From the NCBI GenBank assembly GCA_963844885.1, contig CAWJQA010000018.1, positions 208,675-272,674 on the forward strand: a stretch of 64,000 nucleotides of DNA. Reading direction: 5' to 3'. The DNA comes from an uncultured Holophagales bacterium (GTDB lineage: Bacteria; Acidobacteriota; Thermoanaerobaculia; Multivoradales; UBA5704). The notes under the pieces were generated by a model, which saw nothing but the letters and a program-made list of their open reading frames with translations, had not been told where the DNA came from and did no database searches. The position numbers and the translations under genes are program-made. Shown here one piece after another: positions 4,903 to 39,840 of this stretch (positions within the stretch are counted from its first letter, which is position 1; each line of letters opens with the position of its first letter).

Positions 4903-4912
4903 ACAGCGCGCC

Positions 4913-6274: not shown

Positions 6275-6549
6275 AGCCAGCCAGTCGAAATCTCTGGCTT
6301 GAGCTCGCTGCGCTCTGTCTGTTCCTCTTTAGCCTCGTTCTGTTCTTGCTCACAATGTTTTCCGTAGCGACCTTTTTCATGAGCGGTCTTTTGCCCGACG
6401 AGTCGTCGTCGGCGGGAGTCAAGGTGGTGGTCAGCATCGAGGAGGTGCTGGTGGCAGCTCTATCCACCCTTGTTCCCGGCCTGGCCCTGGTCGCGACGGC
6501 CTGGGGACTGCGCTCGCTCCTGGTCGACGAAAAGGAGCCCGACGCATGA
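6271..6549 (+). CDS. Small hypothetical membrane protein (about 3 TM segments)
   Basis: 92-aa ORF with a GTG start overlapping the upstream TGA. Its stop overlaps the next ATG. It has hydrophobic stretches LWLELAALCLFLFSLVLFLL and LVPGLALVATAW. Confidence 0.5.
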   Translation: MKPASRNLWLELAALCLFLFSLVLFLLTMFSVATFFMSGLLPDESSSAGVKVVVSIEEVLVAALSTLVPGLALVATAWGLRSLLVDEKEPDA

Positions 6550-8510: not shown

Positions 8511-8579
8511 CCAACTTCCCGGCTTTGGGGTCTCTATCGGGTGTCGACGCTCGTCCTGGGATGAGAGGAGGACTTTTCG

Positions 8580-10115: not shown

Positions 10116-10136
10116 CTGAGCCCCGCAGGAGGACCC

Positions 10137-12296: not shown

Positions 12297-14578
12297 AACG
12301 AATTCTGGCGGCCACCACCGTGCTTCTCAGCCTTGCCGCCGCGCCGGCCGCGGCGGACGAACACGTGCGCGTGGTCCTGGACCTCTCGAAGTCGATGCTC
12401 AAGAACGATCCGGGCAGGATGGCGCTCCTGTCGACGGTCCTGCTCCACGACTTGGCGCGGCCCAACTCCACGCAGGGCGATACGTTCAAGGTCATTCCTT
12501 TCGCGCAGGACTGGCGCTGGAGCGATCCCGCGGCTCCGCCTCCCATGGGCAACCGGCCCCAGATTGTAGCGGTGCATGAGAAGCGTGCCGATTTCGTGAA
12601 GCAGGTTCTGGGGCTGAGCTACGACGCCAACATGACCTATTTCTATCCGGGGCTGCTGGAGGCCGTGGCGGACCTGGAGCGCACCACCGGCAGCACCTCG
12701 GGCGTGCGGGCCATCGTCCTGGTGACGGACGGGGTTCCTGAATCGAAGACCCGCGACCGGGAGCTGGAGCTCATCCAGAAGCAAATTGGGCCGCGTTTGG
12801 GAAAGGCGAATATCCGCCTGTATGTGCTGGCGTTCGGCACGGAGGCGTTCGGAAACCAGGAGTTCTTCCGCAAGATCACCACGGCCGCCTCGGGGCCGCT
12901 GGGCGAGCCGTTCTTCGACCCGCAGGGCCGGGAGCTGCTGAGCAACATGCTGACGATCTTCTCCCGCACCTTCGGCTACTCGAAGGGTGCGCTCCAGCGC
13001 CTGCCCGGTGCCCGGGTGGTGGATCTGGAGGGGTCGATCACACCGGAGACCTCGGTGGCGGTCGTGCTCTCGGATCAGACTCAAGCTGAGCCGTCCCTGC
13101 GGTTGACACCTCCGGCTGGCGGTGCCGTGAGCTCGCCGGACGGCGTGCGGAGCGCCGCCGCGGACGGGGGGAGCTACTCGCTGCAATGGGTCCTGAGTCC
13201 CAATGCGGGGCCTTACAGTCTGGATACCAGCGCGGTACGGGGGAGCGTTGCCGTGCTGCGGCCGGTCCAGCTCACCCTGGAGGTGCTCCCCGTGCCGCCC
13301 CGGAACCAGACGGAGCGGGCCATCGCAGGGATGCCGTTCCCGCTGATTATCCGTGTCAAATGGCCGAACGGCGCCAAGGGCGCTCCCAATCCCGTGGATC
13401 TCTCGTTCCGGACGGTCTCCGGACGGTTCAGGACGGAAGATGGCAAGACAGACTTCCGCTGGAAGAGCAAGGTCGAGGCACCTCCTGCCGGACAGGGAAA
13501 CGTCACTGCGGAAGGCCGGGAGTACAACATCTTGGTCAATTTCGCCGAGCACCCGGAGCACCCGGAGCAGCCCTACGCGGGCTACCTCAAGGTGTACGCC
13601 CGCAATAGCGACCAAGTGCTGGGAAAGGCTGTAGGAAGAGTGGTGGGATCGCTGGAGGGCGACCGGGCGCACCGGGTGGAGGTGCATCCGCGGCTCGCCA
13701 TCACCCCCGTGCTGCTCAGCGACTACGCGAAACGGCCCAACGCCGCCCAACAAGGCCTGGGACGGCGCGAAGAGGGATGCGCTGATGTCCGCTTGGAAGT
13801 CTCGGGTTATCTCCCCCACTCCGGCAAGCCGTCCTACCCACTCCTGGCGCGGATCACCGCCACCGACCCCGCCATCTTCGACCGCGAGTTGCGCCGGGCG
13901 TCGTTCACGCTGGATGGCAAGCAACTGGAAATCGAAGGCAAACCCGCGGATGAGCGGGGGCCTTGGAGCAAAGGCCTCATGCTCACGAAGGAGAAGCTCG
14001 AAGGGAATCACAAGCTCTGCGTCCGCGTCGGCAGGCCGACCGTCGGCAATCCGGCGGCCCAGGTGTCGCTGGCGTTCACGCTCCAGGAGGATCCCTACGA
14101 CGACTTCGGCGTGGTGAAGCCGTTTGTCCTCAAGGTGCCGGTGGCGGAGCCGACGTTCCTGGAGCGGTGGAAGGCCCTGCTGCTGACGGGGCTGGCGCTG
14201 CTGGTACTCGCGGCGCTCCTCTGGTACTCGCGTGCGCGGCCCGGATTCCCTCCGGACATGGCCTACGCCGTGGGCCGGGAAGATGCGGAGGATCTCGTAT
14301 CCCGCCCTTTGGAGGAAGGCTCGCCCATTCCCAATCTCCTCGGCCTCGTCGCTGAGCGGCCGGTGATCGCGGGCACGGAGGACCGCTTGCTGGGCCGCGT
14401 GCGTCCCGTGAACGAAGAGCTTTACCAGATGCGCCCCGCCCGCGGCTTCCGTGTCGAGCCGGTGGGCCGGGAGGAGCCGATCCCGATGCGGCGCGGGCTC
14501 GCCACGTTGGCCGCCCGGAGGCTCTACCGCCTGCGCGGCGAGGACGGCTCGTACCTCTTCCGCCTGGAGTACCAATGA
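12293..14578 (+). CDS. Secreted/periplasmic vWA (MIDAS) domain - beta-rich region - single TM - cytoplasmic tail
   Basis: The internal ATG 12293 overlaps the upstream TGA (ATGA). MKRILAATTVLLSLAAAPAAADE looks like a signal peptide. VRVVLDLSKSM (DxSxS) and AIVLVTDGVPES follow. The TM segment is WKALLLTGLALLVLAALLWY. Confidence 0.8.
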   Translation: MKRILAATTVLLSLAAAPAAADEHVRVVLDLSKSMLKNDPGRMALLSTVLLHDLARPNSTQGDTFKVIPFAQDWRWSDPAAPPPMGNRPQIVAVHEKRADFVKQVLGLSYDANMTYFYPGLLEAVADLERTTGSTSGVRAIVLVTDGVPESKTRDRELELIQKQIGPRLGKANIRLYVLAFGTEAFGNQEFFRKITTAASGPLGEPFFDPQGRELLSNMLTIFSRTFGYSKGALQRLPGARVVDLEGSITPETSVAVVLSDQTQAEPSLRLTPPAGGAVSSPDGVRSAAADGGSYSLQWVLSPNAGPYSLDTSAVRGSVAVLRPVQLTLEVLPVPPRNQTERAIAGMPFPLIIRVKWPNGAKGAPNPVDLSFRTVSGRFRTEDGKTDFRWKSKVEAPPAGQGNVTAEGREYNILVNFAEHPEHPEQPYAGYLKVYARNSDQVLGKAVGRVVGSLEGDRAHRVEVHPRLAITPVLLSDYAKRPNAAQQGLGRREEGCADVRLEVSGYLPHSGKPSYPLLARITATDPAIFDRELRRASFTLDGKQLEIEGKPADERGPWSKGLMLTKEKLEGNHKLCVRVGRPTVGNPAAQVSLAFTLQEDPYDDFGVVKPFVLKVPVAEPTFLERWKALLLTGLALLVLAALLWYSRARPGFPPDMAYAVGREDAEDLVSRPLEEGSPIPNLLGLVAERPVIAGTEDRLLGRVRPVNEELYQMRPARGFRVEPVGREEPIPMRRGLATLAARRLYRLRGEDGSYLFRLEYQ

Positions 14579-16926
14579 CCCGTCCCGCGGCGCGCCTGCT
14601 TCTGCTTGCCGCTCTGGCCTGCCCTGCCGGAGCCTGGGCGGAGGGTCGCCACATCGCGATCGTCCTCGACACGTCGGGCTCCATGGATTCCAACGATCAG
14701 CCCCGGTACACGGTGCAGCTCTCACAGGTGATCTCCGACCTGCTGAACGACGGCGACGAGCTCAACGTGATCCGCATGAAGGACGATTCGTCCTGCTCCG
14801 CCGGCGCCTCGTCGTCCCTCGCCTTCACCCTGGACCCGGGGGACCGGCAGAGCTTCAAGCGGCGCCTGGACCAGGAGATCGCCTACGAGACGGGTACCTA
14901 TTTCGCGGCGCCGATCCGCACCGCGGCGGCCCTGCTCTCCGGTAGCCCGGACTCGCAGCGGATGCTCCTGGTAATCGCCGACTCCGGCGGCCTAGGCTCG
15001 TGCGAGGACGAGCTCACGCGGATCCTCCTGGACCTGAGGCAGAAGGGGGTCACCGTCGCGGCGATCAACCTGGGAGGCACGGCGGGCGCATTCGACAGCA
15101 ACCCGGCCTTCGCCTTCACCACGTCCGCCCTGGACGCCCAGGGCCTGATCGAAGCCGTGGCTCAGGTCTACCAGAAATTCCTCGGCGCGAAGACGGTCCA
15201 GACCGGCCGTGTGCAGGGCCCGATCGAGGTAGATGTCGCGCCATTCGTGGACGAGGCGTTCCTGGTGGTGGCCGCCGACGGTCCCCTGAGCGCCGTCGAG
15301 CCGGCGGGCGGCAACCCCGGCGCTGCGGCCGTCGACCCCGACCACCGCGGCGGCGGAAGCACCCAGGGCCTGGACGGCCGGACCCGCGCCTACCGCATCG
15401 TGCGGCTGGAGCGGCCGGCCCCGGGACGCTGGACGTTCAACGTCCCCGGCCTGTCCGCAACCGCGGGCTGGATGCTGCTTCAGGACTCGTCCGTGGGGCT
15501 GCGCCTGGTGTCGTCCCCAGACATGCCTCGCGGTATCGCTACTCCCATGGAGGTCGAGGTCTTCGACCAGAAGACCGGCAAGCGCATCACGGATCTGTCG
15601 CAACTGCCGGGCCTGAGCGTCACGCTCGACGTGGATGGGAAAAAGGTCACGTTTCAGGACGGCGGACAGGACGGCGACCGCGTACCGGGAGACGGCATCC
15701 TGACGGCCATGACCACCCTCGACCAGGCCGGCGCGCGCAAGCTTCCAGTACGCCTGGAGAGCGACCTCCTGGACCGCACGGTGGAGGTCGAGACCCGGGT
15801 TCTCGACGCGGCCTGGAGCCTCGCCGTGAAGACGCCGCCGAAGGCTACGGTGGACCATCCCGTGCTTCTTGAGGTAGAGCTGAAACCCTTCGGTGATCCG
15901 TCCCGGCTCAAACCGCCCGAGCGCATTGACGCGCTCACCGGCGGCCCGGCGGTAGGCCTGCGCGACGACGGTTCGGAGGGAGACCGCACGGCCGGAGACC
16001 GGATCTACTCGCGCCGCTGGATACCCGCGGAGGTGGGCAGCTTCAAAGTCGAGTACGCACCCATCGGCGGGAGCACCTCTCTGCGCGGCGCCGCTCCGAT
16101 CGAGGTGTTGGGCCGGCTGGACTTCGGACCCCTGCGCCCCATCCGGCTCGGGCAGGCTTGCAGTGGAGCCGAAGTGGGTGACCGCCTGGAGCTCGGCGCG
16201 GCCACCGTCCGCGGTGGCTTCGACGCGACCGTGAGCAGCTCGTTCGAGCTCGACCGGACGGCGCTGGAGATCGACCTCGGCGACGGCTGGGTGCTGCTCG
16301 GGAGCAAGCCCCTGCCGCTACGTCTGACCGAGAGCGGTCCCCGTGCCTGGCCGGTGCGGCTGCGGGTCGGCTCCTGTCCGGAAGGGAACCCGAAGGGTAG
16401 GCGGTTCGACATTGTCCTCGAAGCCGCCGGTCCGGACGGCAAGCCGCTGAAAGCCAACGTTCCGCTGGAAGTGGTCGTGATCGAGGATCCATGGCTGCGC
16501 TGCTGGTGGCCGGTGCTGGCCGCCGGAGCCGGCATCGTGCTGGCCGGCGTCCTGGTGCATGGGTTCTGGTCGCCGTCGCGCTTCTCACCCCGTCTGGGCG
16601 TGACCCTCTCGCCGGAGGAGGACTTGACCGAGGGCTTCTTCCATCCCATCCGCGCCCAGCGAGGCACGGGAAGTGGCTTCTACAGGGACGCGCGGGTGTT
16701 CATCCGCCAGGACTTCCGCCTCTCGGGCAACGCTCGTGAAGCCCTGGCGCGTCTGCGTGCCGATCACAAGCTGGTGCGGATCCAGCCGGTCCACGGCACC
16801 GCGCTCTGGCGCCAGAACGCCGAGGGAGCCTGGGAGCAGGTGCCGCCCGCCGAGACCACCGCCCGCTTCGGCGACCTCTACCGCAACGACACGGGAACGC
16901 TGTTTTTCGAGATTCGGAACGCCTGA
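14575..16926 (+). CDS. Secreted/periplasmic vWA (MIDAS) domain - beta-rich region - single TM - cytoplasmic tail
   Basis: 783 aa with an ATGA overlap to the upstream gene. The signal peptide is ..LLLLAALACPAGAWAEG. IAIVLDTSGSM is a canonical DxSGS MIDAS, followed by MLLVIADSGG. The TM segment is WWPVLAAGAGIVLAGVLV. The tail FYRDARVFIRQDFRLSGNAREALARL...GDLYRNDTGTLFFEI is paralogous to that of the 10137 gene. Confidence 0.85.
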   Translation: MTRPAARLLLLAALACPAGAWAEGRHIAIVLDTSGSMDSNDQPRYTVQLSQVISDLLNDGDELNVIRMKDDSSCSAGASSSLAFTLDPGDRQSFKRRLDQEIAYETGTYFAAPIRTAAALLSGSPDSQRMLLVIADSGGLGSCEDELTRILLDLRQKGVTVAAINLGGTAGAFDSNPAFAFTTSALDAQGLIEAVAQVYQKFLGAKTVQTGRVQGPIEVDVAPFVDEAFLVVAADGPLSAVEPAGGNPGAAAVDPDHRGGGSTQGLDGRTRAYRIVRLERPAPGRWTFNVPGLSATAGWMLLQDSSVGLRLVSSPDMPRGIATPMEVEVFDQKTGKRITDLSQLPGLSVTLDVDGKKVTFQDGGQDGDRVPGDGILTAMTTLDQAGARKLPVRLESDLLDRTVEVETRVLDAAWSLAVKTPPKATVDHPVLLEVELKPFGDPSRLKPPERIDALTGGPAVGLRDDGSEGDRTAGDRIYSRRWIPAEVGSFKVEYAPIGGSTSLRGAAPIEVLGRLDFGPLRPIRLGQACSGAEVGDRLELGAATVRGGFDATVSSSFELDRTALEIDLGDGWVLLGSKPLPLRLTESGPRAWPVRLRVGSCPEGNPKGRRFDIVLEAAGPDGKPLKANVPLEVVVIEDPWLRCWWPVLAAGAGIVLAGVLVHGFWSPSRFSPRLGVTLSPEEDLTEGFFHPIRAQRGTGSGFYRDARVFIRQDFRLSGNAREALARLRADHKLVRIQPVHGTALWRQNAEGAWEQVPPAETTARFGDLYRNDTGTLFFEIRNA

Positions 16927-16953: not shown

Positions 16954-19900
16954 ATGAGTGAGAACGGAGAATACCGCAGCGGTCAGGGCACCATCATTCC
17001 CAGGCTGTTCATCGGCCTCGGGGGCGTGGGCTCGCGGATCGTCGACCGGATCGCCGGACGGACGGCCTACCTGCCCAACTGGGAGAGCCAGCTTCGCCCG
17101 CTCACCAACTTCATCTCGATCGACACCAACGAGCTCGACCAGCACAAGCTCAAGCATGTGCCGGACGGCAACCGGTTGAACATCGCCGCGTTCGACAAAG
17201 CCAAGGCCATCGAATACCTGCGGCGCTCCAAGGATCCGCAGGCTCTGCAGTGGCTGGACCGTGGATATCAACCGCGCCCGGTTTCAAGCCTGGCGCCGGC
17301 CAGATCCGGGTGGAAGCGCGCCTCGGCTTTTTCTATCACTCCCTGGAGATCCGCCAGCGCATCAAGGAGCTGATCCATGAGACGCTGCGCCCCGGCATCA
17401 CGTGGCGGCAGTCGAACCCGCCGAAGTACAACGTGTATCTGTTCTGCACGCTCGCCGGCGGCACCGGCTCCGGCAGCTTCCTCTCGGTGGCCTATCTGAT
17501 CAACGCACTGCTAGGCGAGCAGGGGTGGCAACCCCGGGTCATCGGCAACCTGCTTCTGTCCACGCTGATGCTGGACCAGGTCGGCCCCGAGCTCCACCCC
17601 GACATCCACGCCAACACCTACGCGGCGCTCAAGGAGTTGGAGCACCTCACCAAGCTCGACTACAAGCAGGTGAAGGACGAAGGCCGTGTCTCCGATCAAT
17701 TCGTCTACTGCCGGGACGAGAACAACCGGGCGGTGCAGAACGTCGCAACGCGTCCGTTCTTCCTGTCGTTCGTCTTCGACCGTCCCGCGCACCTCGGCCT
17801 GCCGAATCCCGAGACGGCCATCGCGGACGCGGCGTTTCTCCAGATCTTCACGCCGATCATCGACAACCTGGCCGGCGAGCTCGACAACTACGAGAAGAAC
17901 CTCGAGGGACTGACGCGCTTCCCCGGCGATCTCAAGAACGTAGGCCTTGGCTATACCAAGAACTTCGGAGCGTTCGGCGCCGCCGCTCTGGTGCTGCCCG
18001 GCCACGACTTCCTGGAGTACGCCGTGGCGCGCTTCGCCGCGCAGGCGATCCGCAGCCAGATCACCTTCGGCGCCGATCCGGCCAACCCCGGCGACGATCG
18101 GGCGCGCGCCCTGGCGCGGCTGGCGGTCGACTACTCGGACCCCAAATTCCTCAACATGTCGGACGAAGGGCGGGAGCGGACGATCAACCAGTCGTTCCTC
18201 TCCTCGGTGCAGGAGATGGCCCGCCAGGACGAGCGGCAGGAGCTTCTGGAGGGCTACTGGTACCGGCTGGCGGAGTCGGTCGACCAGGGCCGCAAGACCG
18301 GCGTCGACGACAAAGGCGAGGAGGTCCGCGGCGAATCGCAGATCCGCTGGGTAGAGCGCAAGCTGGAAGAGACCCGCCGCGACCTGCTCAACCGGGTGTC
18401 GATCAAGGAGAGGGCGTTCGTCTTCCACCGCGAAGGAGTGAACCAGTACGTGGAGCTGGTCAGCCGGCTGATCGAGGACATCCGGGGCGCGCGCCAGATC
18501 GTGGACGAAGGGGTGCGCGGCCTGGAGGCCGCCGCCCTCGAAGGCGAGGTCGTCTCCGAGCTGAAGCTCGATCCAATCGCCGAGCGCTACCTGGCGATCC
18601 GGCTGCTCGACCGTTGTGAGCAACAGTGGATCCCCGAGGCCCAGCAGCAGCTCGAAAAGGCCCGCGCCCGTGACATCGGCAACCCCAAGGTCCGCGAGCG
18701 GCTGGAGCGCGAGCTCTTCGAGTCGCTCCAGGAGGCGGCCTCGAAACGCGCGATCTTCAACCGTGATCAGGCGTTCCTGAGCGTCCGCGACGAGGCCCAG
18801 GAATACTTCCGCAGCGTGGCCACCGCGGCCCGCAATACCTTCGACGCGGAGATCCGGCTGCGGCAGCTCCGGTCCCTCCTGGAGTACCTGCAGCGCCGTT
18901 CGCGGCAGTACGCCCGGCTCGCCACCCGCATGGACGCTCTGGTGCAGGATCTGGAGCGCGACGCCGAACGCCTGCGCCGCGGCGAAGCCGCCGTGGTCGC
19001 TCCGCTCGCCCTGCGCGTCGAGGTCTTCGAGACGCTCGACGAGCCCCACCGCCGCATCTGGGACCGCGTCTACCTGGCGCTCTTCGTCGAGGGTGGGCGC
19101 TACATGGCCACCTTCGACCGCCAGGCGCTCGCTGAGACCATCTCCCGCGAGCTCAAACCGGTCGTACGCGGCGACGGTACCGTGACGGAAAAGACCCTGG
19201 ACCAGACGGTCAACGACCTGCGCCGCGCCCTGCGCGAGTTGGGCGCTCAGCGGCTGCGCCCGGCCATCCTCGGCGGCGACGGGCAGCCCGGGCTCGACCT
19301 CGTGCGCGGGTTGGAGCTGGAGGGCCGCTTGATCCTCCAGCCCGGCAAGCCGCCGGGCCAGGAGGTCACCGAGGACGAAATCGACGAGTACCGCCGCAAG
19401 AAGTTCCGCGCCCTCGCCCAGGTGGCCGGTGTGCTGGCCCGGGTCAGCTCCACCGAGACCAAGGCCCTGGACGACGGCGTGAAGACGAACCGCACCCGCC
19501 AGCTCATCGTGGGCATCGGCGCCGGCGGCGGCACCGCCTCCCAGCGTTTCGTCGACGAGCTCAACGCCGTACTGGCGACGAGCGGCCGGCAGGTCAAGGA
19601 GGACGAGTGGCACGATCCGCGGATCGCCATCGTCCACGACGTGGAGATGCCGATCCCGCTCTACTACATAGAGCCGGTGACCTCCGAGATCGAGGACGCC
19701 TACCTCGCCCTCGCCGCGGACGAGCGCCGCGCCTACAACCTCCACACGGACTACAACTGGGAACGGTCGCTGCCCAATCTGAACCCCCGCCGTTCGGAAA
19801 TCACCGTGGGCTGGTCGCTGCGCATGCTCGCCGAGGGCCTCCTCACCCACGTCGTCGGCCGGCAGGACGGCTTCTGGGTCTGGCAGATCGACGGCAGCGG

Positions 19901-20246
19901 CGAGGTCGAGCGGCTCGGACGAAACCTGTCGAGCACCCTCTACCGCCTGGGCGAGATCCACCGCATCGAGGATCTCCAGAAGAGGTTGGAGGCGCGGCTC
20001 CGCGAGGCGAAGTCGCTGGTGGACTTCGCGCGGGAGGAGCAGCGGCGCAAGGAGATCCGCGAGCTCGCTGACTCGCTCCTCGCCGCCATGGGCCGGCGCG
20101 AACTGCACGGAGAGATGGCCCGCGAGGACAGTCTGGACCGCCCGATCCTGCGCGCCCTGCTGCAGGAGCTCGACCGTCCGGGCGACGACAGGACTTCGAT
20201 GGCCTCCCCCGATGAACGGCTCTACGAAGGGTTGCGGCTCCCGTGA
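16954..20246 (+). CDS. Giant tubulin/FtsZ-superfamily GTPase (Tubulin_2-like N-domain plus ~700-aa helical/coiled-coil extension); one frame break near 17272 as sequenced
   Basis: Track ORF 16954..17373 gives RLFIGLGGVGSRIVDRI (a GxGxxG nucleotide loop). Track ORF 17250..20246 gives GAGQIRVEARLGF and FCTLAGGTGSGSFLSV, the tubulin signature GGTGSG at 17457-17474. The two frames join at ..WLDRGYQP/APGFKPGAGQ.. if one nt is restored in caacc-gcg (17269-17276). Confidence 0.8.
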
Positions 20247-22738
20247 CGCCCGACACCTCGGTCTCGCCTCAGCGCGCCACGATCCTCGTCGGCTACGGCG
20301 AGCTCGGCCGCGACGTGCTTCGCCGCCTCCTGGCCAGCACCGCACTGCGGGGTGTGCTGGTCTGGGAGGAGCCTCACGGCGGCGCGGACGCCGCCGAGCG
20401 CTCGCTCCAGGATCTGGCCCTCCTCTGGGTGCGCGACCGTGTCGGCGCCGCAGGGCCGGAGCCGGAGGACGACACGCACGGGGAAAGCTCGTTCGAGATG
20501 ATGCGCGACCTTTACCGGCAGATCCAGCAGGTGCCCGAAGCCGGCAGCCCGGAAACCGACTTCGCCGAGGCCCTGTCCGCGGCGGCGGAGAAGCTGCTGT
20601 CGGCTTCGGTGCGGGCGTCGCGCCGCGGCGTCCTGCCGCTCGGCCTGGACGTGGTCGTGATCGCCCGACCCACCGGCCCCGAGGTGATCGGCAGCCTCGA
20701 CCGCATGCTCGTCCGCGGCATGGAGCGGCTGGCGAACAACGCCAATCTGGAGCGCGCGGTGCAGGGATCCGAAGCCCTGAGCTTCCTCAAGATCCTGGAC
20801 TTCGAGAACTACTGGGACCGCGGCGACCGCGGGCGCAGGGTCCGCGAAGCGGTCCACAACTCGGTGGAGCAGTGGTGGAAGCGGCGGATCGACGGCAAGC
20901 CCGCCTTCAGCCGCTTCTATCTCGTGGACGGGCGCACCGCGGACGGCATCCGCGACACCTCGAATCGCATGGACGAAATCAGCCTCTTTCTCGAGCTTCT
21001 GCTCTTCGAGGGCCAGCGTAGCGGCACGCTCCAAAAGCTCTATCAGTCGCAAGGCGCCATCGAGTCGCCGCTGGGGACGTTCGGCATCCGCCTCATGGAG
21101 CGCAGCGCCGGCCTGTTGAGCCGCCTGGCTGCCGCGCGCTTCGGCGTCGGCTGGCTCGCCTACCTGGCGCAGGACGGCGCCGGCACCGGCGGCCGGCCGG
21201 CGGAGCACCTGCGCACACGGCTCGCACCCTATCAGCCAGCCGAGCTGGACCGGCTGCTCGGCCGCGACGAGCTGCGCGCCCTGGTGGATGCCGAGCTGGC
21301 AGCCCTGGAGGCGGAGCTCGTGGCCATCCCGTTCGACCTTCCGGACTGGCCGGAGCGCGTCCGCGCCAGTCACGGTAAAGCCTTGCGCCGTCTGGAAGCC
21401 CGCCTCTCCGAGCGCGTTCGGATCCGCATGGCCGAAATCGGCCGCGAGCGCCTGGCCGGGCTCGCGGAAGATCTCCACGCCGGCATCGAAGATGACCTTC
21501 ACGATTCGCGCGACCCAGTGCCCTTGGGCACCGTCCTCGCCGAGGTCGAGCGCACGCTCGACGATCTCGCGGGCAGAGAGGACGACTCGCCGCAGGCCCC
21601 TTCCGCGGACGCCCTGTTCGCCCGGGTCGCCTCCGTCCACTCCAGCTATCTCCGGTTCTCCTACGACCGCGTGAGCCCCGAGCATCTGCGCCGGTGGTGG
21701 CCGGTCCTCGGCATCGCCCTGTCCGCCGTGCTGACCCCGCTGGTCAGCGAGCTCCTGGCGGACGTTCAGAAACCCGACCCCTTGAAGCTCCTCCAGACCC
21801 GGGCGTGGGATCTTCTGCAATGGATCGCGAAGCCGCCGGTCGTCGGGATTCTCCTGTTCCTTGCCGCCTGGGGGCTCGGCGCCTGGCTTCTGCAACGGTC
21901 GGTCGCGGCGCGCATCGACCGCGCGCGGCGCTTCTTCAGCGACCCGCAGCGCGGTCGGTTCGTGGAGCGGCTGCGCCAGGGCCTGGAGCCGGGCGGCGCG
22001 CTACGCAGCCCTGTCGACCAAGCCGTCGACCGCATGGTGCGGGACATGTCCATCAGCGTCCGCGGAGAGGTTCGGCGCGAGCTGGCGCGGGCGGCGTCCG
22101 TGCTGCGGGAGCGCCGCCGTGAGCTTCTCTGGCTGCGCGAGCAGCTCCGCGAGCTCCTCCGGCTCCATGGCCTGTCGGCCGAGGAGCGCCAAAGCGACCT
22201 CGAACGCGTCCTGCGCAACAATACCGGCGTCACCGGCATCCGTTACTCTCTGGAGCGCGCCGAGGACTTTGAGCGCATGCTACGGAGCAACCCTCCCAAC
22301 TCCGCGCGCTTCCGGTCGACCCAGGGCGCTCAGTCGCCCTTCAATGGCTGGGACCGCCGCTACAGCCGCGCGTTCCTCCACCCGATCACCTTCCTCGACA
22401 GACTGAGCCGCATCTACAAGGACCCGTTCCAGCAGGAGCTGGCGGTGCCCGGCACCGGCCCCGAGCAGCAGCGGCGAGCCGACGAGCTCCTGGAGTTCCT
22501 GCGCCGCCAGGGCTCTTTCGACCTGGCCTTCCAGTGGAAGGCAGAGGCGGGCGTCTCTCCCGACCGCCGCTTCTGCCTCCTGCCCACCATATGGCGCCAG
22601 CTTCCTGGTGTCTTGCCGACGCTCTCCGGCCTGCGAGTAAGCGAGGAGTCAATCCTCCCGGGGAGTGACGTAGCGCGCGCCTACCTGCTGCGGGTACAGA
22701 CCGGCGTCGAGCCGGAATGCCTTCTCAAGAAACGGTGA
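20243..22738 (+). CDS. Large hypothetical protein, possibly a degenerate tubulin-like partner, with two central TM segments
   Basis: 831 aa. The GTG start overlaps the upstream TGA. ATILVGYGELGRDVLRRL parallels FIGLGGVGSRIVDRI of the upstream protein. VVVIARPTGPEVIGSL (20663-20683) sits where GGTGSG would be. Hydrophobic segments are WWPVLGIALSAVLTPLV and VVGILLFLAAWGLGAWLL. The functional call is by-eye and weak. Confidence 0.55.
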   Translation: MTPDTSVSPQRATILVGYGELGRDVLRRLLASTALRGVLVWEEPHGGADAAERSLQDLALLWVRDRVGAAGPEPEDDTHGESSFEMMRDLYRQIQQVPEAGSPETDFAEALSAAAEKLLSASVRASRRGVLPLGLDVVVIARPTGPEVIGSLDRMLVRGMERLANNANLERAVQGSEALSFLKILDFENYWDRGDRGRRVREAVHNSVEQWWKRRIDGKPAFSRFYLVDGRTADGIRDTSNRMDEISLFLELLLFEGQRSGTLQKLYQSQGAIESPLGTFGIRLMERSAGLLSRLAAARFGVGWLAYLAQDGAGTGGRPAEHLRTRLAPYQPAELDRLLGRDELRALVDAELAALEAELVAIPFDLPDWPERVRASHGKALRRLEARLSERVRIRMAEIGRERLAGLAEDLHAGIEDDLHDSRDPVPLGTVLAEVERTLDDLAGREDDSPQAPSADALFARVASVHSSYLRFSYDRVSPEHLRRWWPVLGIALSAVLTPLVSELLADVQKPDPLKLLQTRAWDLLQWIAKPPVVGILLFLAAWGLGAWLLQRSVAARIDRARRFFSDPQRGRFVERLRQGLEPGGALRSPVDQAVDRMVRDMSISVRGEVRRELARAASVLRERRRELLWLREQLRELLRLHGLSAEERQSDLERVLRNNTGVTGIRYSLERAEDFERMLRSNPPNSARFRSTQGAQSPFNGWDRRYSRAFLHPITFLDRLSRIYKDPFQQELAVPGTGPEQQRRADELLEFLRRQGSFDLAFQWKAEAGVSPDRRFCLLPTIWRQLPGVLPTLSGLRVSEESILPGSDVARAYLLRVQTGVEPECLLKKR

Positions 22739-22740
22739 CC

Positions 22741-25641
22741 ATGGACATGCTCGACCAGATCCTGCTCCCCTTCGGCTTTCTCGCGGCTGCCGCAGCCGTG
22801 GCATACGGCGCGGACCGCGCCGCGCTCGCCCGCCGCAGGGACGGCGACCGGGGCGATTTCTGGGCTCGGATCGTCCAGTGGCTCTGCCTGGGCCTCGGAG
22901 TCCCCCTGCTCCTCTCGGGCTTCCTGCAGACGCTCTTTCCGCGGTACTGGCGCCTCGGCCGGCACCTCCAGCTCGATCTGACAGGCGCCTTCGGCTGGAC
23001 GCTGGAAACTTGCTACCGTCTGGCGCTCTTCCTGCCCTTCGCGGCTTGGCTCGCATTGCTGGCCTTGGGCCTCGCGCGCAAGCCGGGGGACCGCGACGAG
23101 GCGCGTTGGCTCGCGGGAGGGATCGGCTTCGGCGGCTCGCGGCTCTGGGTCCTCCTGTGCGCGGCCCCCTTCGCCATCCTCCTGGTGCTGACGCCCGACC
23201 GTCTCGGAGGCGGCGACGGCGCCTACCCCGGCGCCTCCTGGGCGACGGCGGCGGTGCTCCTGCTCTCTCTGGCCGGCGTCGCCCTGAGCGCAGGACGGCC
23301 GGAAGCGGCGCCGTTGGCCCGTCCCGCCGGCTCGTCCCAAGCCACGGCCCCCCCGTCTCTCCAGCCCTGGCCGCAGGCGCTCGCTACGCACGGCGTGAGC
23401 GTCCGCGGAGTAACTTCGTGGTCCGCCAGCGGCCCCGCCCGCGCGCCCCGGCCGGTCGCCGGCAGCGACCTGGCCGAGCGGCTCCGCCACCTGGGAGCGG
23501 GCGAGGTGGCGCCGGAGTTGGTCGAAGCTGTGGGCGCTCTCCTGGAGAACGGGCCAAACGAGGGCGAGCACGGCCCGGCCCGGATCGTCTTCGCCCCCGA
23601 CCACTGCGGCCAGATCGAAACCGTGGCTGTGGCCGCCGCCATGCTGGAGCAGCGGTTCCACGCCACGACCCTCGTGGTCACCGCCCGCGACGCCGAGGCC
23701 CTGGCGGACCAGTTCCGCCTCTGGCTGCCGGCACCCGGCGCCGTCGGCGTCTTCGCCGGCACGGGCGAGCCTCCCTGGGGCGCGGTGGTGTGGATCGTCG
23801 AAGCCCAGATCCTCTCTGACCGGCTGCTCCCGATCCTCAAGGACCCCCTCCAGGCGCGGCGATTCGGCTTCATCGTCTGGTGGCACCTGGAGGCCTTCAG
23901 CGGCGTCTTCGCGGCCAATCTGTGGGCGATCTCGCGGCGGCTCCACCGCCTCCTCCAGGCGCTGGGGCGGCGCGACGTCCGCACGCTGGCCCTGGTCCGT
24001 AGCGCCCCGCACGGCGCGGCCCAGCTCGCCTCGTTCGTGCGGCGCCTCCTTCCGCACTCCTTTCCGGGCGGCGCGGAGGTCCACGTCAGCCAGCGATTCC
24101 CACGCCAGGTCTACCTTCACGCGCTGGAGTCCCACCAGGGCTACTTCGCCCGGGGGGAGGGACGGGATGTCCAGGAGCGCCACCGGCACCTCCCGCTGAT
24201 TGCCGCCCGGGTCTCCGCCGATGAGGGCTGGCCGACGGTCCTGGAGGTCCCGGCCGACGTGGCCAGGCCCGACATCGAAGCCGTTCTTCAGCTCGCGTCC
24301 GGAGGGTCGGTCCTCCGCGACCGCCTGGAGACCGACCCGAGCCGCGCCGGAGCGCGTCTCCTCGGTGTCGAGGCCGGCGATATCCTGTCGCTGCCGGAGA
24401 TCGTCAGCCAGGGTGGACGCTGCGCTCCCGCGGGCCTGCCGCATCACGTGGGGCTCTCGCTGCCGCCGAACCCGTACGCGGCCCACCTCGTCGACCGAAT
24501 GGCGGAAGCCGACGCCGCCTTCCCGACCTCCCGCCGCCTGGTCGCCGCCGAGGCGCTCTCCACTGTGGTCCGCCGGCACCTCCTCCTGGCCCTCAACGAG
24601 CTGCCCGACACCCGCAGCGGGCTGCTCAAGGACTTCCTCTGGAACGACGAGGTCATCAGAAGCACGCTGGACGAGATCGCCCGCGACGGCAAGCTCGTCC
24701 GCCGCGAGGTGCGCTTCCTCACCGAGGGCGGACGCCTGCGGATCGATCACGAGTACAGCAGCCAGCGCCCGCCCAACGACGAGCAGCGCCCGCTCGACAC
24801 GGTAGGTTCCTGGCTGGTTGACGTCCGCGAGCTGGCCGGCGGCTACGACGGCGGCGGCGTGCGTCTGCGCGTCGATCCCGAGCGGCTGACCATCCAGGCC
24901 TACCCGAACCGCGTGTTCCTCCAGGACGGCCGGCGCTACCGCGTGCGCGACTGGAGCTCGATCGAGTCCGTGCTCCGCAGCCGCTCGATCGCCTGCGACC
25001 GCGAGGACGTCCACAGTCTCACCTGGCGCATCCGCAACCCTCTCGTCTTCGGCATCGAGCCGTCGCGGGCGCCGAGCGGCGTGGGCCGTACCGGCAAGCT
25101 CCTCACCTGCTTCCCGGCCCGCCTCACCTACGAGGAGGAGGTGGTGGGAGCCCTGCGGTTGGCGCCGGACCTGGGCACCGGCCTGCCGCCGCGCACCGAG
25201 ACACTGCGCCTCGCGCGGCCGATCACCCAGAGCTTTTCCACCCGTGCCCTGATTCTGCGCTTCCCGGATGAAGAGGAGCACGTCGCTCTCGCGTCGCTCG
25301 CCCAAGCTCTGCGCCACGTCCTCCCCGTCCACCTCGGCGTCGACGAGGACGCGCTCGAGGTCGTGCCGCTAACCGGTGAGATCATCAGCGACCTGCCCAC
25401 CTACGGTCTCGCCGTGGTCGACCTCTACCCCGGTGGCATCGGTCTCGTGGACGAGATCGGCGACGACAGCCCCTTCCTGCTCCAACTCCTCGAATGGACC
25501 GACGGCTGGCTCAAGGCTTGTCCTTGCCAGAGCGACGCCGGCTGCGACCGCTGCCTGCGCTCGCCGGCCGCGCTGGCGGCCAACATCGATCAACCCCCAC
25601 TGCGGAAGGCGGCCCTCGGCCTCCTCCGTCAAGTCCTTTGA
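22741..25641 (+). CDS. Five-TM N-terminal domain fused to a helicase-like core with degenerate Walker A, and a C-terminal DUF1998 (MrfA/YprA-type Zn-binding) domain
   Basis: ATG 22741 lies 2 nt after the upstream stop (alternatives: GTG 22735, ATG 22717). Five hydrophobic segments lie in the first ~190 aa. ARIVFAPDHCGQIETVAV lacks GK[ST], and GFIVWWHLEAFSG sits at the DExH position. The C-terminus VVDLYPGGIGLVDE...CPCQSDAGCDRCL...NIDQPPLRKAA (Cys cluster 25519-25554) matches the DUF1998 pattern. Confidence 0.7.
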   Translation: MDMLDQILLPFGFLAAAAAVAYGADRAALARRRDGDRGDFWARIVQWLCLGLGVPLLLSGFLQTLFPRYWRLGRHLQLDLTGAFGWTLETCYRLALFLPFAAWLALLALGLARKPGDRDEARWLAGGIGFGGSRLWVLLCAAPFAILLVLTPDRLGGGDGAYPGASWATAAVLLLSLAGVALSAGRPEAAPLARPAGSSQATAPPSLQPWPQALATHGVSVRGVTSWSASGPARAPRPVAGSDLAERLRHLGAGEVAPELVEAVGALLENGPNEGEHGPARIVFAPDHCGQIETVAVAAAMLEQRFHATTLVVTARDAEALADQFRLWLPAPGAVGVFAGTGEPPWGAVVWIVEAQILSDRLLPILKDPLQARRFGFIVWWHLEAFSGVFAANLWAISRRLHRLLQALGRRDVRTLALVRSAPHGAAQLASFVRRLLPHSFPGGAEVHVSQRFPRQVYLHALESHQGYFARGEGRDVQERHRHLPLIAARVSADEGWPTVLEVPADVARPDIEAVLQLASGGSVLRDRLETDPSRAGARLLGVEAGDILSLPEIVSQGGRCAPAGLPHHVGLSLPPNPYAAHLVDRMAEADAAFPTSRRLVAAEALSTVVRRHLLLALNELPDTRSGLLKDFLWNDEVIRSTLDEIARDGKLVRREVRFLTEGGRLRIDHEYSSQRPPNDEQRPLDTVGSWLVDVRELAGGYDGGGVRLRVDPERLTIQAYPNRVFLQDGRRYRVRDWSSIESVLRSRSIACDREDVHSLTWRIRNPLVFGIEPSRAPSGVGRTGKLLTCFPARLTYEEEVVGALRLAPDLGTGLPPRTETLRLARPITQSFSTRALILRFPDEEEHVALASLAQALRHVLPVHLGVDEDALEVVPLTGEIISDLPTYGLAVVDLYPGGIGLVDEIGDDSPFLLQLLEWTDGWLKACPCQSDAGCDRCLRSPAALAANIDQPPLRKAALGLLRQVL

Positions 25642-25653
25642 GGACCGGACATC

Positions 25654-26889
25654 ATGTTCAGACCCAAGATCCACGGCGAGCTCGAAACCATCCACGAGCG
25701 CCTGCGCGGCTGGGAGACCTCGGTCCCGGCGCGCGCCCGTCGCTTCCACGCTCTGCGCGGAAGCCTGGAGGAGCAGGCCCGCAAGCTCCTGGGTCAGTTC
25801 GTGGTCTGGAGCGGGAACGAGACCCTCCAGCGGCTCAAGGACCGGACCGACCGGCTCAGCATGGTTGCCGAGCCGCTGGCGACCCTGATTCGGGACGCCG
25901 AACGCCTCGAACAGGAGATCAAGCTCCTCGCCCAGCGTGCCCGGGACGCCGGCAGTCCCGAGGTCGCTCGTGGCCTCGAGCAGCGCTGCCGCGACTGGTC
26001 CATCCTCATCGGCAGCCTGGGTACGGACTGCGACCGGGAGCCGGAGCTGCAGCGCGACCAGCTCCGCCTGCGCGGCACCGAGGAGGTGGTCCGCCTCCAC
26101 GACCAGGCGGTTTCCTGGCTCCAGGAGGCCCGGCGGGTGCTCTCCGACCTGGGCTCGGACCTCAAGGCCGCGCCCCTGGCCGCGGCCCTCCCGGACTTCG
26201 ACCTGCGTCTCCTGCGCGACGGCGCTACTCTGGAATGGGTTCAGGAGCTCAAAATGCTGGTCCAGCCGCTCAAGGATCTGGCCCGCCGCATCCAGGACCC
26301 TCCCCAGGAGCTCAAGACCGTGTCGCTGCTCCTCACCGACCTCCGCGGCTGGTCGCGGCAACTCAAGGAGAAGGAGGACCGCGTCGAGCAGCTCAAGCAG
26401 CGGCACCACTTCTACGCGGCGGACTGGAGCCCGGCCGGCCTCGACGACCTCGCCCGCGATGCCGAAACACTCCGCGACGAGCTAGTGGCCCAAGCCCGCG
26501 ATTTGCGCCGGCGAAAGCTCGAAGAGCTCAAGGACCGGGTCGAGGAGCTCATCCAGGCCTGCGGCCCACAGCCCGAGCTGGACGAGCGCATGTCCGAGGT
26601 CGAGACGCTGTCGTTCGACCGCTATCAACTTTTCCGCGAGTGGGCGGCCCGCTTCAAGCGTGTGGAAGACTACTTTCAGGCCATCGCCAACACCCATGAA
26701 GGTGCGCTCGAACGGCGCCTGTCCGAGCTCGTGGACGGGCTCCGCCAGGGCCTGGGAGCGCTCCGTTCCCAACCCCTTTCCGATCAGGTCCGCGGCGAGG
26801 CCGACGCTTTGAGCACGACCTGCGCGAGCTCGCCCAGATTTCCGGAGCCGAGCCGATGCTGCGCGCTCTCGGCCGGAGCGGCGAGATGA
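25654..26889 (+). CDS. Coiled-coil protein (hypothetical)
   Basis: 411 aa, rich in E/R/L/Q with long heptad-like stretches. The last ~25 aa (STTCASSPRFPEPSRCCALSAGAAR) look out of frame. The next gene's frame is already open from 26700, so the two ORFs may be one ~770-aa protein. Confidence 0.6.
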   Translation: MFRPKIHGELETIHERLRGWETSVPARARRFHALRGSLEEQARKLLGQFVVWSGNETLQRLKDRTDRLSMVAEPLATLIRDAERLEQEIKLLAQRARDAGSPEVARGLEQRCRDWSILIGSLGTDCDREPELQRDQLRLRGTEEVVRLHDQAVSWLQEARRVLSDLGSDLKAAPLAAALPDFDLRLLRDGATLEWVQELKMLVQPLKDLARRIQDPPQELKTVSLLLTDLRGWSRQLKEKEDRVEQLKQRHHFYAADWSPAGLDDLARDAETLRDELVAQARDLRRRKLEELKDRVEELIQACGPQPELDERMSEVETLSFDRYQLFREWAARFKRVEDYFQAIANTHEGALERRLSELVDGLRQGLGALRSQPLSDQVRGEADALSTTCASSPRFPEPSRCCALSAGAAR

Positions 26890-27962
26890 AGAGGACGCTC
26901 GACCGGCTCACGCGCCAGGCTCGGGAGGACTCCGAGGAGCTCTCGCGGCAGCAGGAAGCGCTGCGGGAAGCCTACCGGGATCTCCGTCTTCGGGCGAGTG
27001 AGGCCGGCCACACCCTTCCGGACCTCGCGGAGCGCATCGAGGATCTGTCGCGCGGCAAGGACGAGCCTTCGCTGGAGAGGGCGCGGCAACTCGCCGCCGA
27101 CCTTGCGGCCGAGCTGGACCGGCAGCGGCAGGAGGTGCTCCGGTGGTGCCGTTCGCTGCTCGACCGGCGGATGGCCGAAATCCGCGCCACCGCCGAGGCG
27201 CTGCGCCGCACCGGCACGCCCTTCACTCTTCCGGAAATCCCACTCCTGCAAGAAGACGCCAGCCCCGGCGACGCGATCCTGGCTCTGAAGCGCGCCGAAG
27301 AGGTCGGGGCCCTCCTTCTCGCGGCCGTGGAGACGGCGCTTCACTCCTGCGAAGAGCGGCGGCTCCAGGCCCAGGCCGCTCTCCAGCAGCTCCGTCCGGA
27401 GTCGCTCGGACCCGACGAGCGGGAGACCGTAGCTCAGCTTCTCCAGGAGCTGGACAAGGGATCCTGGGCCGACTCCGAAAACCTTGTCGAGCGCTTCGAG
27501 CTCCTGTCCCAGGTGGTCGAGATGTGTGACCTCCTCTTTCAGCGGCTGAACGAGGAAGAGCGCTCCGCCCGTTCCCGGCGCGAAGCCCTCCGCCGCCGGC
27601 TCCAACGCCACACCGAGAACCAGATGCGGCGTTTCTCTCCCGACCTCACCGACCGCGTCGCGGACCTGGTTTACGGCATCCCCGACGAGCCGGCCTCCTG
27701 GCGGGCTGTCCAGGAGCAGCTCGGCGTGGCGGAGCTCCTGCTCGCCCGCATCGAAACGCACGCGGCGCGCCTCGCGGCCGAAGAGCTCGACCGCGCCGCC
27801 GAAACCCTCCGCGGCCGGCGCGGCCGGTCCGCCACGCCCGAAGTCCGAACCCTTCTGGCCGATCTGGAGCGCTACTCCGACGAGGAGCTGCCGCCGGTGA
27901 TCCTGCGGACGCGCATTGTGAACGCGGCCCGGAAAGCCGCCCAAGGAGACCCCCGCCCATGA
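26886..27962 (+). CDS. Coiled-coil protein (hypothetical); possibly continuous with the preceding ORF
   Basis: ATG 26886 overlaps the upstream TGA (ATGA). 358 aa of E/R/L/A-rich helical sequence. Its stop overlaps the next ATG. Confidence 0.6.
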   Translation: MKRTLDRLTRQAREDSEELSRQQEALREAYRDLRLRASEAGHTLPDLAERIEDLSRGKDEPSLERARQLAADLAAELDRQRQEVLRWCRSLLDRRMAEIRATAEALRRTGTPFTLPEIPLLQEDASPGDAILALKRAEEVGALLLAAVETALHSCEERRLQAQAALQQLRPESLGPDERETVAQLLQELDKGSWADSENLVERFELLSQVVEMCDLLFQRLNEEERSARSRREALRRRLQRHTENQMRRFSPDLTDRVADLVYGIPDEPASWRAVQEQLGVAELLLARIETHAARLAAEELDRAAETLRGRRGRSATPEVRTLLADLERYSDEELPPVILRTRIVNAARKAAQGDPRP

Positions 27963-34402: not shown

Positions 34403-34413
34403 TTTCGAATCGA

Positions 34414-36908: not shown

Positions 36909-36917
36909 GCCGCAAGC

Positions 36918-38084: not shown

Positions 38085-38087
38085 CTC

Positions 38088-39744: not shown

Positions 39745-39840
39745 GTCTCCTCCCTTCCTCGGGATGGAACCTCGGTGCTCCTATATAGTCACCAGCCGCG
39801 GCAGAAGGTTTAGTCTGGATCGAGGTTCCGTCACCGCCGC

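Follow-up and report, generated by a model that had tools for sequence, protein, structure and literature searches.

The FtsZl1/Tubulin_2 family is the most divergent branch of the tubulin superfamily and has been known by sequence since 2010. The family was defined by the operon link of its genes to von Willebrand factor A (vWA) proteins, many of them exported or membrane-bound and with an intact metal ion-dependent adhesion site (MIDAS) (Makarova and Koonin, Biol Direct 5:33, PMC2875224). The same paper gives a divergent GTPase, protein kinases and OmpA-like proteins as further neighbours and proposes membrane remodelling as the function; its type example has 1051 amino acids (aa), the T6-H7 region being not identifiable in the family. 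Pfam Tubulin_2 corresponds to this FtsZ-like family of Makarova and Koonin (Santana-Molina et al., 2023, PMC9871819). Conflict systems built on GAP1-N2-type DO-GTPases also include tubulin-domain proteins with helical C-terminal extensions, together with two vWA proteins; their Firmicute versions carry two tubulin genes, and the tubulin theme was said to be confined to Firmicutes and Actinobacteria (Kaur, Burroughs, Iyer and Aravind, 2020, eLife 9:e52696, PMC7159879). Here, we describe a tubulin-like gene (gene A) and its downstream neighbour (gene B) in a stretch of 64,000 nucleotides from an uncultured Holophagales bacterium of the Acidobacteriota (assembly GCA_963844885.1, contig CAWJQA010000018.1, positions 208,675 to 272,674), which as a whole is called the window. 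An earlier note on this DNA had proposed that the two genes form an active/inactive tubulin-like pair with one membrane-tethered partner, a view that is now supported by structure prediction, and had taken bacterial tubulin relatives to be unlinked to vWA proteins. The latter is contradicted both by FtsZl1 (PMC2875224, PMC9871819) and by the DO-GTPase systems (PMC7159879). Thus, the operon link of Tubulin_2 with vWA (2010) and the meeting of tubulin and vWA in DO-GTPase conflict systems (2020) are already known. What appears to be new, judged from modelled structure, is gene B as a cryptic, membrane-inserted tubulin-fold family that lacks the T4 loop and is in fixed pairing with FtsZl1, along with a Gram-negative variant of the system that lacks GAP1.

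Gene A (16954-20246, forward strand) is present as two open reading frames (ORFs) in different frames, 16954-17373 and 17250-20246, and encodes 1097 aa once repaired. Both fragments exceed the gathering score of Pfam Tubulin_2 (PF13809; cut-off 27): the first matches profile positions 1-50 (E = 6.4e-7, 29.4 bits) and the second positions 115-356 (E = 2.2e-32, 113.1 bits), and the resemblance is therefore not a chance motif match. All three tubulin elements previously read in this protein were located, namely the T1 loop FIGLGGVGSRIV at 17008-17043, which includes GLGGVGS, the motif GAGQIRVEARLGF at 17292-17330, and the T4 signature AGGTGSG at 17454-17474, with GGTGSG at 17457-17474. GGTGSG is found in each of the 116 full-length orthologues, and in an alignment of 41 orthologues G19, G21, G22 and G24 of T1 and G167-G168-T169-G170-S171-G172 of T4 are invariant. 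More than 100 orthologues are single ORFs of 1092-1100 aa with 59-86% identity, all containing PF13809; the gene A product is 86% identical to P0001 and has all its motifs intact. In the AlphaFold2 model of P0003, an orthologue with 83% identity (predicted local distance difference test, pLDDT, 78), the elements follow the S1-H1...S6-H7 order of the tubulin/FtsZ GTPase domain. A long helical stalk (~380-840) and an alpha/beta C-terminal domain (~845-1000) come next, so that the stretch of about 700 helical residues expected from the sequence holds for the stalk and gives way to a folded domain at its end. Foldseek comparison of this model with the PDB gave TubZ (2xkb, E = 5.3e-4) and CetZ (3zid, E = 8.9e-4) as the best matches, both with probability 1.0, followed by weaker matches to FtsZ and tubulins (E = 2.5e-2 and above, probability 0.91-1.0); the target-normalised template modelling scores (TM-scores) against the TubZ, CetZ, FtsZ and tubulin families are 0.32-0.46. 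Considering the Tubulin_2 matches, the intact orthologues, the invariant T1 and T4 glycines, the fold matches to TubZ, CetZ and FtsZ, and the literature equating Tubulin_2 with FtsZl1, gene A very likely encodes a cytoplasmic tubulin/FtsZ-superfamily protein of about 1100 aa that is a member of FtsZl1/Tubulin_2, as the earlier note had supposed at the level of the superfamily.

Gene B (20243-22738, forward strand) encodes 831 aa. Its GTG start at 20243 overlaps the TGA stop of gene A (20244-20246) as GTGA, in agreement with what had been noted before. In the protein, an N-terminal domain with a predicted tubulin/FtsZ fold (aa 1 to ~310) precedes a helical region and a membrane hairpin of two helices, followed by a long helix and, at the C-terminus, an alpha/beta domain. 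No match to gene B was found in Pfam, NCBIfam or PADLOC, and its homologues constitute a sequence-orphan family of 102 clusters at 90% identity with members of about 800-860 aa. A hidden Markov model (HMM) search with the gene B alignment against 1.84 billion representative proteins returned 171 matches, of which the best 150 are all B-family proteins or fragments, with no bridge to tubulins or any other family among them. In addition, the end of the profile (its last 37 residues, 792-828) is matched 33 times in P0337 (2081 aa), which may be a repeat protein made of this C-terminal element or a low-complexity artefact. The loop LVGYGELGRDVL at the T1 position (20285-20320, forward strand) lies between predicted S1 (12-18) and H1 (19-34). 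Here the window protein has GYGELG, with G17 and G22 invariant and G19 at least 90% conserved, fewer glycines than in a canonical T1; GxGxxG occurs in 147 of the 166 full-length family members. The loop IARPTGPEVIGS at the T4 position (20660-20695, forward strand) lies between predicted S4 (135-141) and H4 (146-164) and contains ARPTGPE at 20663-20683, the family consensus being the glycine-poor ARPxxxExxG. A GGGTGSG-type signature is absent from 165 of the 166 full-length members, a single one having any GGG[ST]G within the first 260 aa. The motif LDFENYW at the T5 position is strongly conserved. With a mean column identity of 0.62, the N-terminal domain is the best-conserved part of the protein, indicating that it is under selection and is not decaying. 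The membrane hairpin (aa 487-506 and 531-551; 21701-21895, forward strand) was located by a hydropathy scan, by the flanking sequence and by the predicted helices 479-506, 516-528 and 531-566, which bears out the two transmembrane segments reported previously. Arg-rich flanks on both sides of the hairpin suggest that the N- and C-terminal domains are both cytoplasmic; the hairpin would thus anchor gene B in the inner membrane, its two globular parts facing the cytoplasm.

The relation of gene B to tubulins emerges from its predicted structure. The AlphaFold2 model (pLDDT 85.4, predicted TM-score 0.75, most blocks of the N-terminal domain above 85) contains six alternating strand-helix units that are collinear with gene A through S1-S6 and the subsequent helices, and it places GYGELG between S1 and H1 and ARPTGPEVIGS between S4 and H4, that is, at the T1 and T4 positions. 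Both motifs had been assigned to equivalent positions from the letters alone, and the model agrees. In Foldseek searches of the PDB, this model matched tubulin, FtsZ, CetZ1 (4b46) and gamma-tubulin with probability 0.99-1.0 over 290-325 columns (E = 2e-3 to 3e-2, target-normalised TM-score 0.32-0.41, root-mean-square deviation (rmsd) 6-10 Å). No alpha/beta fold other than that of tubulin, FtsZ and CetZ proteins occurs within its top 50 PDB matches, and in a second structure library (BFVD) phage tubulin-like and FtsZ proteins were matched. The TM-scores come close to the 0.32-0.46 that these families give with the model of the gene A orthologue, a genuine Tubulin_2 protein. The helical parts also matched ClyA-type pore-forming toxins (MakA, AhlB and SmhB) and dynamins, with rmsd of about 20-46 Å and low TM-scores; these matches were dismissed as noise from helical bundles or, at best, a resemblance in architecture. 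A fold comparison had been set beforehand as the test of the proposal, and it recovered the tubulin/FtsZ fold for the models of both the gene A orthologue and gene B. Profile-profile comparison by hhalign, in turn, aligned residues 13-190 of full-length gene B collinearly with the T1-to-T4 region of the gene A family at a probability of 5%, the S1-T1-H1 unit only when the N-terminal domains were compared (12.7%), and again only this unit with a broader Tubulin_2 set (41%, E = 2.8e-4). Since S1-T1-H1 alone is aligned, sequence by itself cannot establish homology of A and B. The idea of a similar scaffold with its signature glycines replaced is supported by the modelled fold and by the loss of T4. 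Overall, the models make it probable that the N-terminal domain of gene B has a tubulin/FtsZ fold without the GGGTGSG loop and represents a previously unannotated family. Its description as possibly catalytically dead agrees with the disappearance of the T4 signature; "inactive" is inferred from this motif loss, and GxGxxG is kept.

At the end of the H7-like helix of gene A, alignment and model show the motif ELDNYE with an invariant D309 and a near-invariant E312. This motif and, at the matching place of gene B, FLELLLFEGQR with the conserved E251 and E256 could be T7-type elements. Searches of PDB sequences with the profiles of the A and B families returned coiled-coil noise only, e.g., SMC5 and apolipoprotein A-I.

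The coupling of the two genes is indicated by the GTGA overlap, by their adjacency in every locus that holds both, and by their correlated divergence (Spearman 0.97 over 24 loci); the divergence of gene B and that of the MZB membrane protein encoded next to it are likewise correlated (Pearson 0.97). The predicted A-B pairing has a model in alpha/beta tubulin and in BtubA/BtubB, which are also adjacent or co-expressed tubulin-fold paralogues of unequal nucleotide chemistry, with one partner that does not turn over GTP. In those pairs, however, both subunits are soluble, keep GGGTGSG and bind GTP, whereas gene B lacks the loop, is predicted to be an integral membrane protein and has no detectable sequence similarity to gene A. 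TubZ and CetZ are the best structural matches of the gene A orthologue, and CetZ1 and phage tubulin-like proteins are among those of gene B, but TubZ, PhuZ and CetZ are soluble proteins of 300-480 aa that form polymers on their own for DNA positioning or cell shape, whereas A and B have two to three times this size and belong to a vWA/membrane operon. The combination of G-domain, helical stalk and hydrophobic membrane hairpin is reminiscent of bacterial dynamin-like pairs (IniA/IniC and DynA), which often are tandem paralogues and are linked to membrane stress. The fold here is that of tubulin and not of dynamin, and the Foldseek matches to IniA, Drp1 and MxA are weak (probability 0.5 or lower), so that the analogy is architectural only.

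A and B are genes 4 and 5 of a conserved operon that spans the envelope with its ten genes and whose recurrent order is vWA1-vWA2-vWA3-A-B-MZB protein-gene 7-gene 8-DO-GTPase-gene 10. A scan of one genome per species, with gene order determined by tblastn of the window proteins, yielded 31 loci with a relative of gene B. These belong to Acidobacteriota (Thermoanaerobaculia, Terriglobia and Bryobacterales) and Gammaproteobacteria (Competibacteraceae, Methylococcaceae and Chromatiaceae), and include the cultured strains Methylovulum psychrotolerans (CP022129) and Lamprocystis purpurea DSM 4197, whose versions are intact. Gene A is 45-74% identical across the two phyla, suggesting horizontal spread. 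The MZB gene constantly adjoins gene B, and the DO-GTPase gene is present in 19 loci. Pairs of B and MZB genes also occur with no tubulin-like or vWA gene nearby in four loci of Lamprocystis and other Chromatiaceae (L023, L024, L030 and L031; B at about 10001-12394, MZB directly downstream), in L031 next to AcrB/HlyD efflux, AAA-PDDEXK and LysE genes; Lamprocystis purpurea has such an orphan pair in addition to its full operon (L019). These pairs suggest that B and the MZB protein form a sub-module.

All ten genes are on the forward strand. Gene 1, vWA1 (10137-12296), encodes a signal peptide, an extracytoplasmic vWA domain with the MIDAS sequence DTSVS, a transmembrane helix at about aa 571-603 and, as in the other two vWA proteins, a cytoplasmic tail of about 115 aa; it shows weak matches to Pfam VWA/VWA_2 and to NCBIfam choice_anchor_X, and is syntenic in most of 34 comparison loci. 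Its paralogue vWA2 (gene 2, 12293-14578) has the signal peptide MKRILAATTVLLSLAAAPAAA, the MIDAS sequence DLSKS, a transmembrane helix near the C-terminus and a cytoplasmic tail. Inspection of start codons and Shine-Dalgarno sequences placed the true start of vWA2 at ATG 12293, overlapping the vWA1 stop as ATGA; its VWA matches are weak (E = 0.08-0.3), and the gene is syntenic across the comparison loci. vWA3 (gene 3, 14575-16926), which is syntenic as well, has a signal peptide, the MIDAS sequence DTSGS, a transmembrane helix at aa 643-666 and a cytoplasmic tail like that of vWA1, and matches VWA_2 (5.4e-8), VWA (7.7e-6) and choice_anchor_X (1.2e-15). The tails of vWA1 and vWA3 (11949-12293 and 16573-16923) share GFYRxARxF..DFRLSG..., which suggests a common small domain. 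An FHA-like nature of the vWA tails had been suspected, as had a known family for the C-terminal domains of A and B or for the N-terminal domain of the DO-GTPase, and these candidates were discarded, with no Pfam match even at E up to 1. Downstream of gene B, gene 6 (22717-25641) encodes a polytopic membrane protein with about 5-6 N-terminal transmembrane helices, a large cytoplasmic part and a C-terminal four-Cys MZB zinc domain of the MrfA/DUF1998 type (Pfam MZB, 2.3e-7; YprA/MrfA in the PDB, 6znp, 1.7e-4; CPCx5CxxC at C935, C937, C943 and C946). Gene 7 (25654-26889, 411 aa) and gene 8 (26856-27962, 368 aa) are conserved by synteny, the former with just sub-threshold matches to coiled-coil families and the latter with no significant family match. 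Gene 9 (27959-29641) encodes the DO-GTPase2 protein, in which an N-terminal domain of about 300 aa precedes a P-loop GTPase with the Walker A motif GPSSAGKT at aa 318 (PF19993, E = 8.5e-7, 29.3 bits against a cut-off of 27; 5.1e-8 for the L008 orthologue). Gene 10, a paralogue of the N-terminal domain of this DO-GTPase gene, was recognised as a remnant at 29566-31000, where the intact orthologue from L008 is matched in tblastn. NCBIfam gave nothing useful for A or B.

In what respects does this operon resemble the described systems? As in FtsZl1, an N-terminal FtsZ/tubulin GTP-binding domain, in which T1 and T4 are separated by a family-specific insert, precedes a helical or coiled-coil middle part and a C-terminal domain in a protein of about 1050-1100 aa, the operon contains vWA genes with intact MIDAS and signal peptides or transmembrane helices, and membrane proteins and a divergent P-loop GTPase are encoded nearby. 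Unlike in the operons of 2010, as far as the available part of that paper describes them, an MZB membrane protein is added here and OmpA and protein-kinase neighbours are absent; the lineage-specific neighbours listed in that part include no second, cryptic tubulin-fold gene. The DO-GTPase systems share with this operon the PF19993 gene, a tubulin protein with a helical C-terminal extension, several vWA proteins with the domain outside the membrane, and many transmembrane parts. Both are predicted cytoskeleton-like assemblies in biological conflict, and the Firmicute versions likewise have two tubulin genes. In contrast to those systems, the operon occurs in Acidobacteriota and Gammaproteobacteria, its second tubulin-fold protein is T4-less and predicted to be membrane-inserted, the core includes an MZB protein, and there is one clear GTPase, whose neighbour shares the N-terminal domain only. 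GAP1 and FNIII, too, were undetected by Pfam. For GAP1 (GAP1-N2, -M and -C) there was no match among the operon products, with genes 7, 8 and 10 tried to E = 1, although a very divergent GAP1 may escape this search; for FNIII there was no match among the operon products, the vWA proteins giving choice-of-anchor-X beta-sandwich matches instead.

The gap between vWA3 and gene A is a lineage-dependent variable slot. It holds SIR2_2 in Methylovulum, SIR2_2-TPR in Methylumidiphilus, GmrSD_N in Lamprocystis, an Mrr-type endonuclease (Mrr_cat) in Thiodictyon and an NMT1-like periplasmic-binding gene in Competibacteraceae. The slot genes were located at 8090-9937 in L001, 4765-6615 in L016 (SIR2_2 with TPR), 4444-6438 in L019, 4118-5335 (minus strand) in L021, 5537-6622 in L011 and 1791-2828 in L017.

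Two of the ten operon genes, A and 10, are broken in this genome. Gene A is split between frames at CCGCGCCCGGTTTC, where 1 nucleotide (nt) is missing in the C/G run CGCCCGGTTTC (CGCCCGG, within 17273-17283, forward strand), as frame comparison and the junctions of intact orthologues show; the sequence problem suspected near 17272 is thus real. With one base added, the junction becomes LDRGYQPRPGFKPGAGQ, the same as in P0090 (a 96%-identical Thermoanaerobaculia protein), P0003 and P0004, and the pattern Y[QRK]P[RK]xGxKPGAGQ is present at this place in 94 of the 116 full-length orthologues. Programmed frameshifting is ruled out, since every orthologue is a single ORF, which leaves an error of the assembly or a recent inactivating mutation as the cause of the break. 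In gene 10, the coding sequence is scattered across three or more frames, with a remaining ORF of just 109 aa (29638-29967), and the gene is therefore decayed in this window. Given the disrupted genes A and 10, the operon may be inactive in this genome.

The explanation that we consider best, with a probability of roughly 0.55 for identities, conflict role and mechanism taken together, is that the operon encodes an NTP-gated apparatus for conflict or defence and falls into the class that Kaur et al. (2020) predicted. In this apparatus, the three outward-facing vWA proteins would sense a ligand of the envelope or of an invader, and the signal would pass the membrane to B and the MZB protein. 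Gene A would assemble GTP-dependently at the membrane, with B as its membrane-bound, non-hydrolysing partner, acting as nucleator, cap, adaptor or tether in loose analogy with the non-hydrolysing subunit of alpha/beta tubulin, and the DO-GTPase would set the threshold of the switch. The output could come from the effectors that are inserted in some loci (SIR2, GmrSD and Mrr), or the remodelling of the membrane could itself be the output. For the role of the operon in conflict or defence the odds appear even, and the assignment of B as nucleator or cap, which draws on the tubulin analogy, is tentative and less likely than not. What tips the balance towards the conflict role is the insertion of SIR2 and restriction genes, together with the surrounding island and the patchy occurrence over phyla. 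Several points weigh against this explanation. The link between B and tubulins comes from predicted structure, with Foldseek E-values of just 2e-3 to 3e-2 and TM-scores below 0.5, and the profile-profile comparison of A and B is confident over just 23-32 columns. Gene B keeps GxGxxG and LDFENYW, so that it may bind a ligand and need not be dead. Some slot genes, such as the NMT1-like gene, are not defence genes. PADLOC-DB 2.0 matches none of A, B and the vWA genes, its marginal matches being DruE against the MZB domain (1.9e-4) and LmuB (3e-3), and tblastn of gene B against plasmids gave no match. Some loci lack the DO-GTPase and some B and MZB pairs lack A, and hence the ten genes are not one indivisible unit. 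The membrane-remodelling reading of Makarova and Koonin fits the same anatomy equally well, and the literature searched yielded no experiment on an FtsZl1 or DO-GTPase system.

GxGxxG is a classic dinucleotide-binding motif, and the N-terminal domain of B might accordingly be a generic Rossmann-like alpha/beta domain, making B a membrane adaptor with neither a tubulin ancestry nor paralogy to A. The profile comparisons that are non-significant past the first strand-loop-helix, the HMM search of 1.84 billion proteins that shows no bridge to any tubulin family among the best 150 of 171 matches, the TM-scores of 0.32-0.41 with rmsd of 6-10 Å, and a few dehydrogenases low in the list of viral matches would all be accommodated by this alternative. 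It is nevertheless very unlikely, as the alpha/beta matches among the top 50 in the PDB are all tubulin, FtsZ or CetZ proteins with probability 0.99-1.0 over about 300 columns, which extends beyond a Rossmann core, the second library gives phage tubulin and FtsZ, the matches are as good as those of the genuine Tubulin_2 protein, and the order of secondary structures is collinear with that of A through S1-S6 and the next helices. The operon might also be a housekeeping machine for membrane remodelling or a cytoskeleton, in which filaments of A and B shape, repair or vesiculate the inner membrane on envelope cues sensed by the vWA proteins, with no part in conflict with phages or mobile elements. 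Restriction-type and SIR2 genes inserted within the operon, toxin-antitoxin, CHAT or BrxL genes as neighbours, a patchy two-phylum distribution resembling horizontal transfer, and the apparent loss or breakage of the operon with no obvious consequence, as in the window, make this alternative unlikely. It is, however, a published hypothesis (PMC2875224) and agrees with nearly all components being membrane-bound and with the lack of PADLOC matches to the tubulin or vWA genes. It would also explain the dynamin-like layout of G-domain and stalk in A and B, with a hairpin in B, as well as the weak matches to IniA, Drp1 and MxA, although these have a probability of 0.5 or lower and rmsd above 19 Å. 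The defence and membrane-remodelling readings are not mutually exclusive.

A further alternative concerns this genome. The locus may be a dead relic, the frameshift in A and the decay of gene 10 being genuine mutations, so that a functional tubulin-like pair is not made; we rate its chance at somewhat below even. The disruption of two of ten genes next to eight long intact ORFs speaks against a uniformly error-prone assembly, the several frame changes and low identity of gene 10 are typical of decay, and the public gene call for A is a truncated product of 937 aa (P0002). On the other hand, a single 1-nt loss in a C/G run of an otherwise fully conserved gene A is what would be expected from an error in sequencing or assembly, or from a very recent event, the 96%-identical relative has an intact junction, and gene B and the remaining genes show no decay. 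As A and gene 10 are disrupted here, the intact operons of cultured strains are the better experimental entry point, and those of Methylovulum psychrotolerans and Lamprocystis purpurea DSM 4197 are clonable and testable.

If B is truly a membrane-embedded, signature-less tubulin-fold partner, it would provide a testable model for the anchoring and nucleation of giant tubulin relatives and would add a pseudo-enzyme member to the tubulin superfamily, and the tubulin/vWA/DO-GTPase conflict systems would extend to Gram-negative phyla in a GAP1-less form. A bolder and speculative proposal, which we consider doubtful at present, is that B founds an unrecognised tubulin/FtsZ branch of integral-membrane pseudo-GTPases that pair one-to-one with FtsZl1. 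The A-B pair would then be a heterodimeric tubulin-like module built on a dynamin-like plan (G-domain, stalk and membrane hairpin), in which signals from the extracellular vWA sensors set off GTP-driven assembly at the inner membrane, serving either defence or the repair of the membrane. Partners that are just as hard to recognise may be encoded in other FtsZl1 operons, e.g., by the 680-aa gene that follows Tubulin_2 in Meiothermus.

Outside the 31 loci, vWA and Tubulin_2 genes are adjacent in a Bacillus genome, and on Thermales megaplasmids vWA-Tubulin_2 modules stand beside BrxL, HEPN, WYL and helicase genes. In L037 (Meiothermus taiwanensis plasmid, 7009-15086) and L038 (Allomeiothermus silvanus plasmid, 7069-16161), the module consists of vWA, Tubulin_2 (~905 aa), the 680-aa hypothetical gene and BrxL, with Swt1-HEPN, DUF1156, WYL and helicase genes in the flanks. 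The 680-aa gene of Meiothermus occupies the position of B; no transmembrane helix and no HMM similarity to B were found in it. On plasmid p2 of Azospirillum sp. TSA2s (L035, 9614-13258), a 1214-aa Tubulin_2 gene with no B-like partner lies amid caspase-family, OmpA, DUF4384 and PEGA genes. This is a different type of FtsZl1 neighbourhood, which fits the OmpA theme of the 2010 paper.

The window as a whole looks like a conflict-gene island. It contains an AbiEii toxin gene at 91-1218 and two sets of an M48-like peptidase with a CHAT (caspase-like) protease at 2794-8510 and 44779-47998, the first of which also includes a pentapeptide-repeat protein at 4790-6274 and has its CHAT gene at 6546-8510. 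No CHAT gene was seen in L001 and L002, the two loci with upstream genes listed, most other loci ending at vWA1. Of the vWA/protease operon in the earlier note, the three conserved vWA genes thus hold, and the protease has no counterpart in these two loci. Just upstream of vWA1, a 511-aa protein (8580-10115) has several N-terminal transmembrane helices, a C-terminal transmembrane helix and a MIDAS-like DVSKS; no family match to it was found, nor was it found in the comparison loci. Downstream of the operon, the minus strand of 32000-44300 carries long ORFs of 729, 356, 493, 388, 456 and 856 aa that have no Pfam match. The GC content of this segment is 0.575-0.63, compared with about 0.70 in the operon, and it may be a separately acquired block.

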